Shown piece after piece: positions 22,490 to 22,842 of a DNA stretch of 64,000 bases (positions are counted from its first letter, which is position 1; each line of letters opens with the position of its first letter). The position numbers and the translations under genes are program-made. The notes under the pieces were generated by a model, which was given only the letters and a program-made list of their open reading frames with translations, did not search any database and was not told where the DNA came from. The stretch comes from Dictyostelium discoideum (taxonomy: Eukaryota): the NCBI GenBank assembly GCA_000004695.1, contig CM000152.2, positions 4,640,001 through 4,704,000 on the forward strand, read 5' to 3'.

Positions 22490-22842
22490 TTTCTTAGTGA
22501 ATTTTTGGTATATGTTTTTTGGACTTGAGTGTTTGGGTGATTTTTTTTTTTTTTTTTTTTTTTTTGGCACAGACTTTTTTTTATTTAACCTATTAATACT
22601 GTTTATTTCCTTTAATGGATAAACATTGATAATCAATATAAAAAAATAAAAAATATTAAATATTAAAGTTCCATAAATAAAACTATTAATCTTTTATATT
22701 ACCTTTAGTGGACAAACACCAATCAATATTATATTATATCTGAAATAAAAAAAAGTCTGTGCCAAAAAAAAAAAAAAAAAAAAAAAAAAATCACCCAAAC
22801 ACTCTAGTCCAAAAAACATATACCAAAATTCACTAAGCAAAA
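22490..22842. repeat. Foldback / MITE-like element with roughly 90-bp terminal inverted repeats around a 165-bp loop of two imperfect direct repeats
   Basis: The left arm is ttcttagtgaatttttggtatatgttttttggacttgagtgtttgggtga(T)n ttggcacagactttttttt. The right arm at 22745-22842 is its reverse complement at about 95% identity: aaaaaaagtctgtgccaaa(A)ntcacccaaacactctagtccaaaaaacatataccaaaattcactaagcaaaagg. The loop holds cctattaatactgtttatttcctttaatggataaacattgataatcaatat and the similar ctattaatcttttatattacctttagtggacaaacaccaatcaatattat. Confidence 0.5.

Follow-up and report, generated by a model that had tools for sequence, protein, structure and literature searches.

A 355-bp hairpin-forming inverted repeat in a patch of repeat debris upstream of a tRNA-Met gene of Dictyostelium discoideum

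Genomic context

The DNA analysed here is a window of 64 kb from Dictyostelium discoideum, the whole stretch being numbered from its first letter. It contains an inverted-repeat element of 355 bp at positions 22488-22842, set in a patch that the initial annotation had described as repeat-rich. That description is broadly borne out, the neighbours being a tRNA-Met gene, the ORF2 tail of a presumably TRE5-like retroelement and a pseudogene fragment of Hsp70. The tRNA-Met (CAT) gene (20155-20226, minus strand, Rfam tRNA 57.7 bits) is found about 2.26 kb from the element. Tail to tail with this intact gene lies a decayed inverted copy of the tRNA together with its 5' flank (19916-20053 versus 20132-20297), with about 78 nt between the two and a 19-nt deletion inside the copied tRNA. 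The alignment of the two copies scores 123.5, compared to 59 ± 7 for shuffled sequences, and its best-kept part (19952-19981 versus 20225-20254) is identical at 28 of 30 positions. The region thus holds a second palindrome of similar scale, unrelated to the element and 2.2 kb away from it.

Upstream of the tRNA-Met gene, pointing away from it and starting within about 245 bp of its 5' end, there is a 5'-truncated non-LTR retroelement (20471-22035, plus strand). Its 377-aa ORF closes with a CCHC-type motif, and downstream of the ORF come roughly 420 nt of 3' sequence and the A15 tail (22020-22035). The ORF had no match in Pfam, and the name TRE5-like is our assumption, drawn from the position and orientation of the retroelement near tRNA-Met rather than from a library match. 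TRE5-A itself is reported to integrate upstream of tRNA genes, at a distance of about 50 bp (PMC3159450, PMC9012585). The stop codon of the 377-aa ORF is followed by an unusually long homopolymer, an A60 run at 21607-21666.

The interval from the tail of this retroelement to the hairpin is about 450 bp long, has a G+C content of 23.5% and includes two more A runs. On the right side of the hairpin, about 110 bp end in an A17 run (22953-22969), directly followed by a C-terminal fragment of an Hsp70 gene (plus strand, 22953-23968 with the A run included) that covers positions ~323-595 of the 599 in the Pfam HSP70 model. The fragment has kept one short intron (~23050-23090) and shows at least two frame breaks, and the window has no sequence for the N-terminal ~320 residues. 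Judged by its sequence, it is a dead partial duplicate, since it is both truncated and broken in frame at least twice. An insertion of the hairpin into an Hsp70 gene was also considered and rejected: the HSP70 alignment begins only past the A17 run, at position ~323, and left-flank peptides gave no match.

Farther to the left, 5 kb from the element, the assembly has a 100-N gap (17191-17290). A short way downstream of the gap there are two ORFs that adjoin each other (17789-18469, 18517-19686); neither has a Pfam match, and they may be one broken gene. A CPSF160-like exon neighbouring the element did not retrieve any match in a protein homology search.

Architecture and folding of the element

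The left arm of the inverted repeat (22488-22586, plus strand, 99 nt) and the right arm (22743-22842, minus strand, 100 nt) are reverse complements of each other in 96 of 101 alignment columns, i.e. at about 95% identity. The remaining columns are two mismatches and three gap columns, the latter reflecting a short T run with a 1-nt indel and a homopolymer whose length differs by 2 nt between the arms. Both the identity and the long T/A homopolymer inside each arm agree with the initial annotation, which had put the arms at roughly 90 bp, slightly less than their actual length. The homopolymer of the left arm is T25 (22541-22565) and is followed by GGCACAGAC. Its counterpart in the right arm is A27 on the plus strand (22764-22790), which on the minus strand reads as T27 and again continues into GGCACAGAC. 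The left arm begins with about 53 nt of complex sequence, its outer part (22488-22540), continues with the T25 run and closes with a 21-nt inner part, GGCACAGACTTTTTTTTATTT. The sequence-complex outer parts of the arms have a G+C content of 30-33%, an exon- or transposon-like composition near that of the neighbouring retroelement ORF (34.5%) and well apart from ordinary intergenic DNA nearby (12%; 21% for the whole window), which argues against the arms being plain spacer DNA.

Between the arms, as delimited by the gapped alignment, lies a centre of 156 nt (22587-22742) with an asymmetric sequence. Most of it is made up of two direct repeat units on the plus strand: unit a (22587-22639, about 53 nt) abuts the inner end of the left arm, an A/T-rich spacer sequence follows (22640-22679), and unit b (22680-22732), which is about 80% identical to unit a, stops 10 nt short of the right arm. 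The alignment of the two units scores 44, beyond anything seen in 500 shuffles (19.4 ± 3.3, maximum 36). This part of the element had been described as a 165-bp loop made of two diverged copies of a 50-bp unit; the two diverged units are indeed present, while the loop length has to be corrected to 156 nt, an interval of 166 nt being obtained between the shorter, ungapped arms.

Prediction of the hairpin, which had been proposed as a check, gave a strong fold: as single-stranded DNA the element reaches -104.1 kcal/mol, compared to -33.9 ± 3.7 for its shuffles (z = -19.1). In a self-comparison of the 64 kb it is also the top inverted match, with 254 bits versus 97 for the runner-up. As had been surmised, the structure is non-coding. 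The only ORFs that overlap it, of 50 and 69 aa, are poly-K/poly-F and spurious; a search with the translated arm as a protein yielded no candidates, and no Rfam family matched the element.

Two short motifs in the arms were examined as possible clues and rejected. One, CACCCAAACACTC, matches the fungal LR16 primer site and could have been derived from LSU rRNA; it is a 13-nt coincidence with no Rfam match. The other was a possible DUSE-like promoter. The DUSE-like motif of ncRNA promoters is [AT]CCCA[CT]AA; the arms have ACCCAAAC instead.

Boundaries, search for further copies and a second assembly

The inverted repeat breaks off sharply at each of its outer ends. Alignments of one flank against the other (60, 120 and 250 nt) did not score better than shuffles. 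Flanking target-site duplications, the other hallmark for which a search had been suggested, were scanned for at boundary offsets of 0-11 with lengths (k) of 2-9, and none was detected at these boundaries; the sole identical flanks are a TA at offset 9. Given that TA is palindromic and that the inverted repeat runs 7 bases past it with one mismatch, this dinucleotide provides no evidence of insertion.

To look for relatives of the element we used blastn (word sizes 7-9) and nhmmer (--max) with profiles of the arm and of the loop repeat, covering the window and an additional 6.4 kb of flanking sequence (about 70 kb). No further copy of the arms or of the loop repeat, even a diverged one, was found in this sequence, and the arm profile matched only the two arms themselves. 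These ~70 kb amount to 0.2% of the 34-Mb genome, a sample in which a copy search is uninformative unless a family has hundreds of copies. Exact-match scans of metagenome contigs and of prokaryotic genome contigs with three different 24-25-mers were empty as well, in collections that evidently do not include this species.

The window could be related to a second assembly, GCA_054883475.1, which has spliced gene models around the element. A single-exon gene of 981 aa (ORF 3635-6580) is encoded exactly in CM142509.1 of that assembly, and the 7 kb around this gene are 99.83% identical between the window and CM142509.1. Extrapolating from the match of this gene, the element should be located near 4,740,980-4,741,330 of CM142509.1.

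Relationship to described elements

The geometry of the element makes a MITE-like or other non-autonomous DNA transposon plausible. Like such non-autonomous class II elements it has terminal inverted repeats (of 99/100 nt), a small size (355 bp), a non-coding interior rich in A/T, direct repeats in internal or subterminal position and a site among transposon debris. It differs from a MITE in having no target-site duplication, and a terminal inverted repeat of 100 bp that includes a homopolymer of 25-27 nt is long for this class. Among the DNA transposons of the species, Tdd-4 also has long inverted ends (about 145 bp), and D. discoideum transposons are reportedly prone to cluster together. Our literature search did not retrieve any paper describing MITEs in Dictyostelium. 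DNA transposons as a whole represent 1.5% of the D. discoideum genome and include the Tdd, DDT and Thug families (PMC5633606).

Within this set the initial annotation had considered the structure consistent with a thug-S or DDT-like affiliation, without assigning it to a family. The likeness to thug-S consists in the shared organism and in the fact that DDT, Tdd and thug-S are class II elements found within transposon clusters. However, thug-S includes an annotated, intron-containing gene (PMC4894637; DDB_G0271154_TE in PMC12405889), whereas the element described here has no ORF. In addition, thug-S contains a hairpin that gives rise to miRNAs from multicopy loci, with a canonical miRNA pair in Table S4 (PMC4894637). 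The 5p and 3p sequences of this miRNA, the sole multicopy canonical one (Table 2/Table S4 of PMC4894637, where text and table label it slightly differently), are absent from the window even when up to 3 mismatches are allowed. With neither an ORF in the element nor the thug-S miRNAs in the window, a copy of thug-S is disfavoured, although a deletion derivative of thug-S that has kept only the ends is conceivable.

The other affiliation put forward, a foldback element, is disfavoured as well. Foldback (FB) elements are similar in consisting mostly of two long inverted arms able to snap back. Their arms are nevertheless built of tandem subrepeats and they come with a 9-bp duplication; here no tandem subrepeats were seen inside the arms besides the homopolymer, and no 9-bp duplication at the ends.

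Origin of the element

The element is most likely unremarkable: a small dead transposon, or else a local palindrome amid junk sequence. Our tentative preference, somewhat short of an even chance, is that a DNA transposon, either non-autonomous or internally deleted, inserted into the debris upstream of tRNA-Met and left this relic. If so, the two arms would be terminal inverted repeats that bind a transposase, the direct repeats between them would descend from subterminal sequence of the transposon family, and the element, mobile in the past, would today probably be inert DNA. Should read-through transcription cross it, the resulting RNA would form a duplex of about 100 bp, a possible source of small RNAs after cleavage by Dicer-type enzymes. 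Several features point in this direction: the terminal inverted repeats are long, sharply bounded and about 95% identical; the element is small and has no real ORF; its hairpin is very stable and constitutes the strongest palindrome in the 64 kb; the outer arms have the G+C content (30-33%) of a gene or transposon; and the site is a patch shared with a tRNA-Met gene, a TRE5-like element that lacks its 5' part and a pseudogene fragment of Hsp70. Furthermore, the two layers of repeats are of unlike identity (95% for the arms, 80% for the direct repeats), which is more simply accounted for by an inherited family architecture than by two separate local duplications within 355 bp. Arguing against a transposon relic are the missing target-site duplication, the only candidate (TA) lying inside the repeat, the failure of blastn and nhmmer --max to reveal another copy within ~70 kb, and the absence of those thug-S traits that could be checked. 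The inverted copy of tRNA-Met 2.2 kb away counts against it too, being evidence that inverted duplications can form locally in this very patch.

Nearly as likely, in our estimation, is a one-off local inverted duplication, in which some 100 bp would have been copied in reverse across a spacer of ~156 bp, by template switching during replication or by fold-back repair, and would since have drifted to 95% identity without acquiring any function. Such an event would leave abrupt repeat ends, no target-site duplication and a single copy, as observed here in the ~70 kb searched, and it would have a precedent in the second palindrome formed by the tRNA-Met copy 2.2 kb away. The surroundings are also clearly rearranged, as witnessed by the truncated retroelement and the truncated and frameshifted Hsp70 fragment. 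What this scenario accommodates less easily is the pair of 53-nt loop repeats, which need a separate and older direct duplication, and the exon- or transposon-like G+C content of the arms, from which the source of the duplicated sequence would probably be foreign or genic; moreover, neither a donor sequence nor junction microhomology was identified.

The two origins would differ in what they imply. A true MITE-type family would be an addition to the non-autonomous class II elements of D. discoideum, whose DNA transposons are few (1.5%) and poorly understood, also as to the type of their transposase, and the termini described here could point to the autonomous partner. A one-off inverted duplication would be of small value in itself and, along with the inverted copy of tRNA-Met, would do no more than flag a region prone to rearrangement upstream of a tRNA gene.

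Another way to read the element is as a hairpin-RNA locus, i.e. the precursor of long-hairpin siRNAs or of a miRNA, possibly derived from a transposon. We regard this as unlikely. If transcribed, a hairpin with a 100-bp stem would be a ready substrate for the RNAi machinery of Dictyostelium and could be an evolving small-RNA gene. Long, near-perfect stems of this kind are shared with known small-RNA hairpin loci (plant proto-miRNAs, MITE-derived miRNA genes, D. discoideum pri-miRNAs), and the stability of the fold (-104.1 kcal/mol as single-stranded DNA) is in line with such a role, as is the precedent of thug-S repeats as a miRNA source in D. discoideum (PMC4894637). The mapped starts of D. 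discoideum pri-miRNAs consist of a G after up to 26 T (PMC6161686, section 2.8), and a T-run-then-G is present in each arm, facing inward. These are the T25 and T27 runs, each followed by GG, one per strand and both placed inside the stem. In a variant of the hairpin-RNA reading, the T25-27-then-G of each arm would be an inward start; the resulting convergent transcripts would cover the centre, and their terminal 21 nt (5' and 3') would pair with each other. The corresponding G-to-G RNA of 198 nt does fold with a 21-bp closing stem (z = -6.6).

The same comparison reveals how common this motif is. The window contains 58 T runs of at least 20 nt, 13 of which are followed by G, making the motif a generic one, and in the element it is located inside the stem and not upstream as in the D. 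discoideum pri-miRNAs. Neither of the two arm mismatches is wobble-compatible, and there is hence no sign of selection for pairing. In addition, 9- to 13-mers from the arms and loop are absent from the D. discoideum miRNA tables and supplements that were searched, the element has no Rfam match, and no target-like sequence was found elsewhere in the window.

More doubtful still is a combination of these ideas, in which the element would belong to an uncatalogued small inverted-repeat family, or be a unique locus, and serve as an endogenous source of small RNAs, by way of a long hairpin or of convergent transcription, through T-run-then-G promoters in its arms. With such promoters directed inward, the element would be equipped to produce dsRNA by itself. 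Finally, an assembly or cloning artefact, such as a chimeric fold-back read built into the reference, is very improbable: although palindromes are a known class of artefact and a 100-N gap is found 5 kb away, the arms differ by two substitutions and two indels, they are only ~100 nt long with unique sequence on either side, and they enclose a 156-nt asymmetric centre with direct repeats instead of an adapter or a zero-length turn.

Other features in the window

Two smaller palindromes were noticed elsewhere. A hairpin at 34332-34446, unrelated to the element in sequence, has inverted arms of 29 nt (34332-34360 and 34418-34446), and its stem is lengthened by an A20 and a T10 run just inside the arms. 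At ~60782-60825, between ORFs, a perfect palindrome of the form A12-CCATTATATAATGG-T18 resembles a terminator.

An alpha-amylase-like gene on the minus strand has one long intron of 443 nt (32366-32808), which is unusual for Dictyostelium. This intron includes G+C-richer islands split by A18, A19 and T15 runs, which might be an inserted element or an intronic RNA; no Rfam family matched at the gathering threshold.

The window also includes two tandem nucleoside-transporter genes on the minus strand (12057-13602 and 14374-16182, Pfam Nucleoside_tran). Their products are of 482 and 522 aa in GCA_054883475.1, and the genes are diverged duplicates of each other, with DNA about 69% identical between 13000-13322 and 15540-15854.
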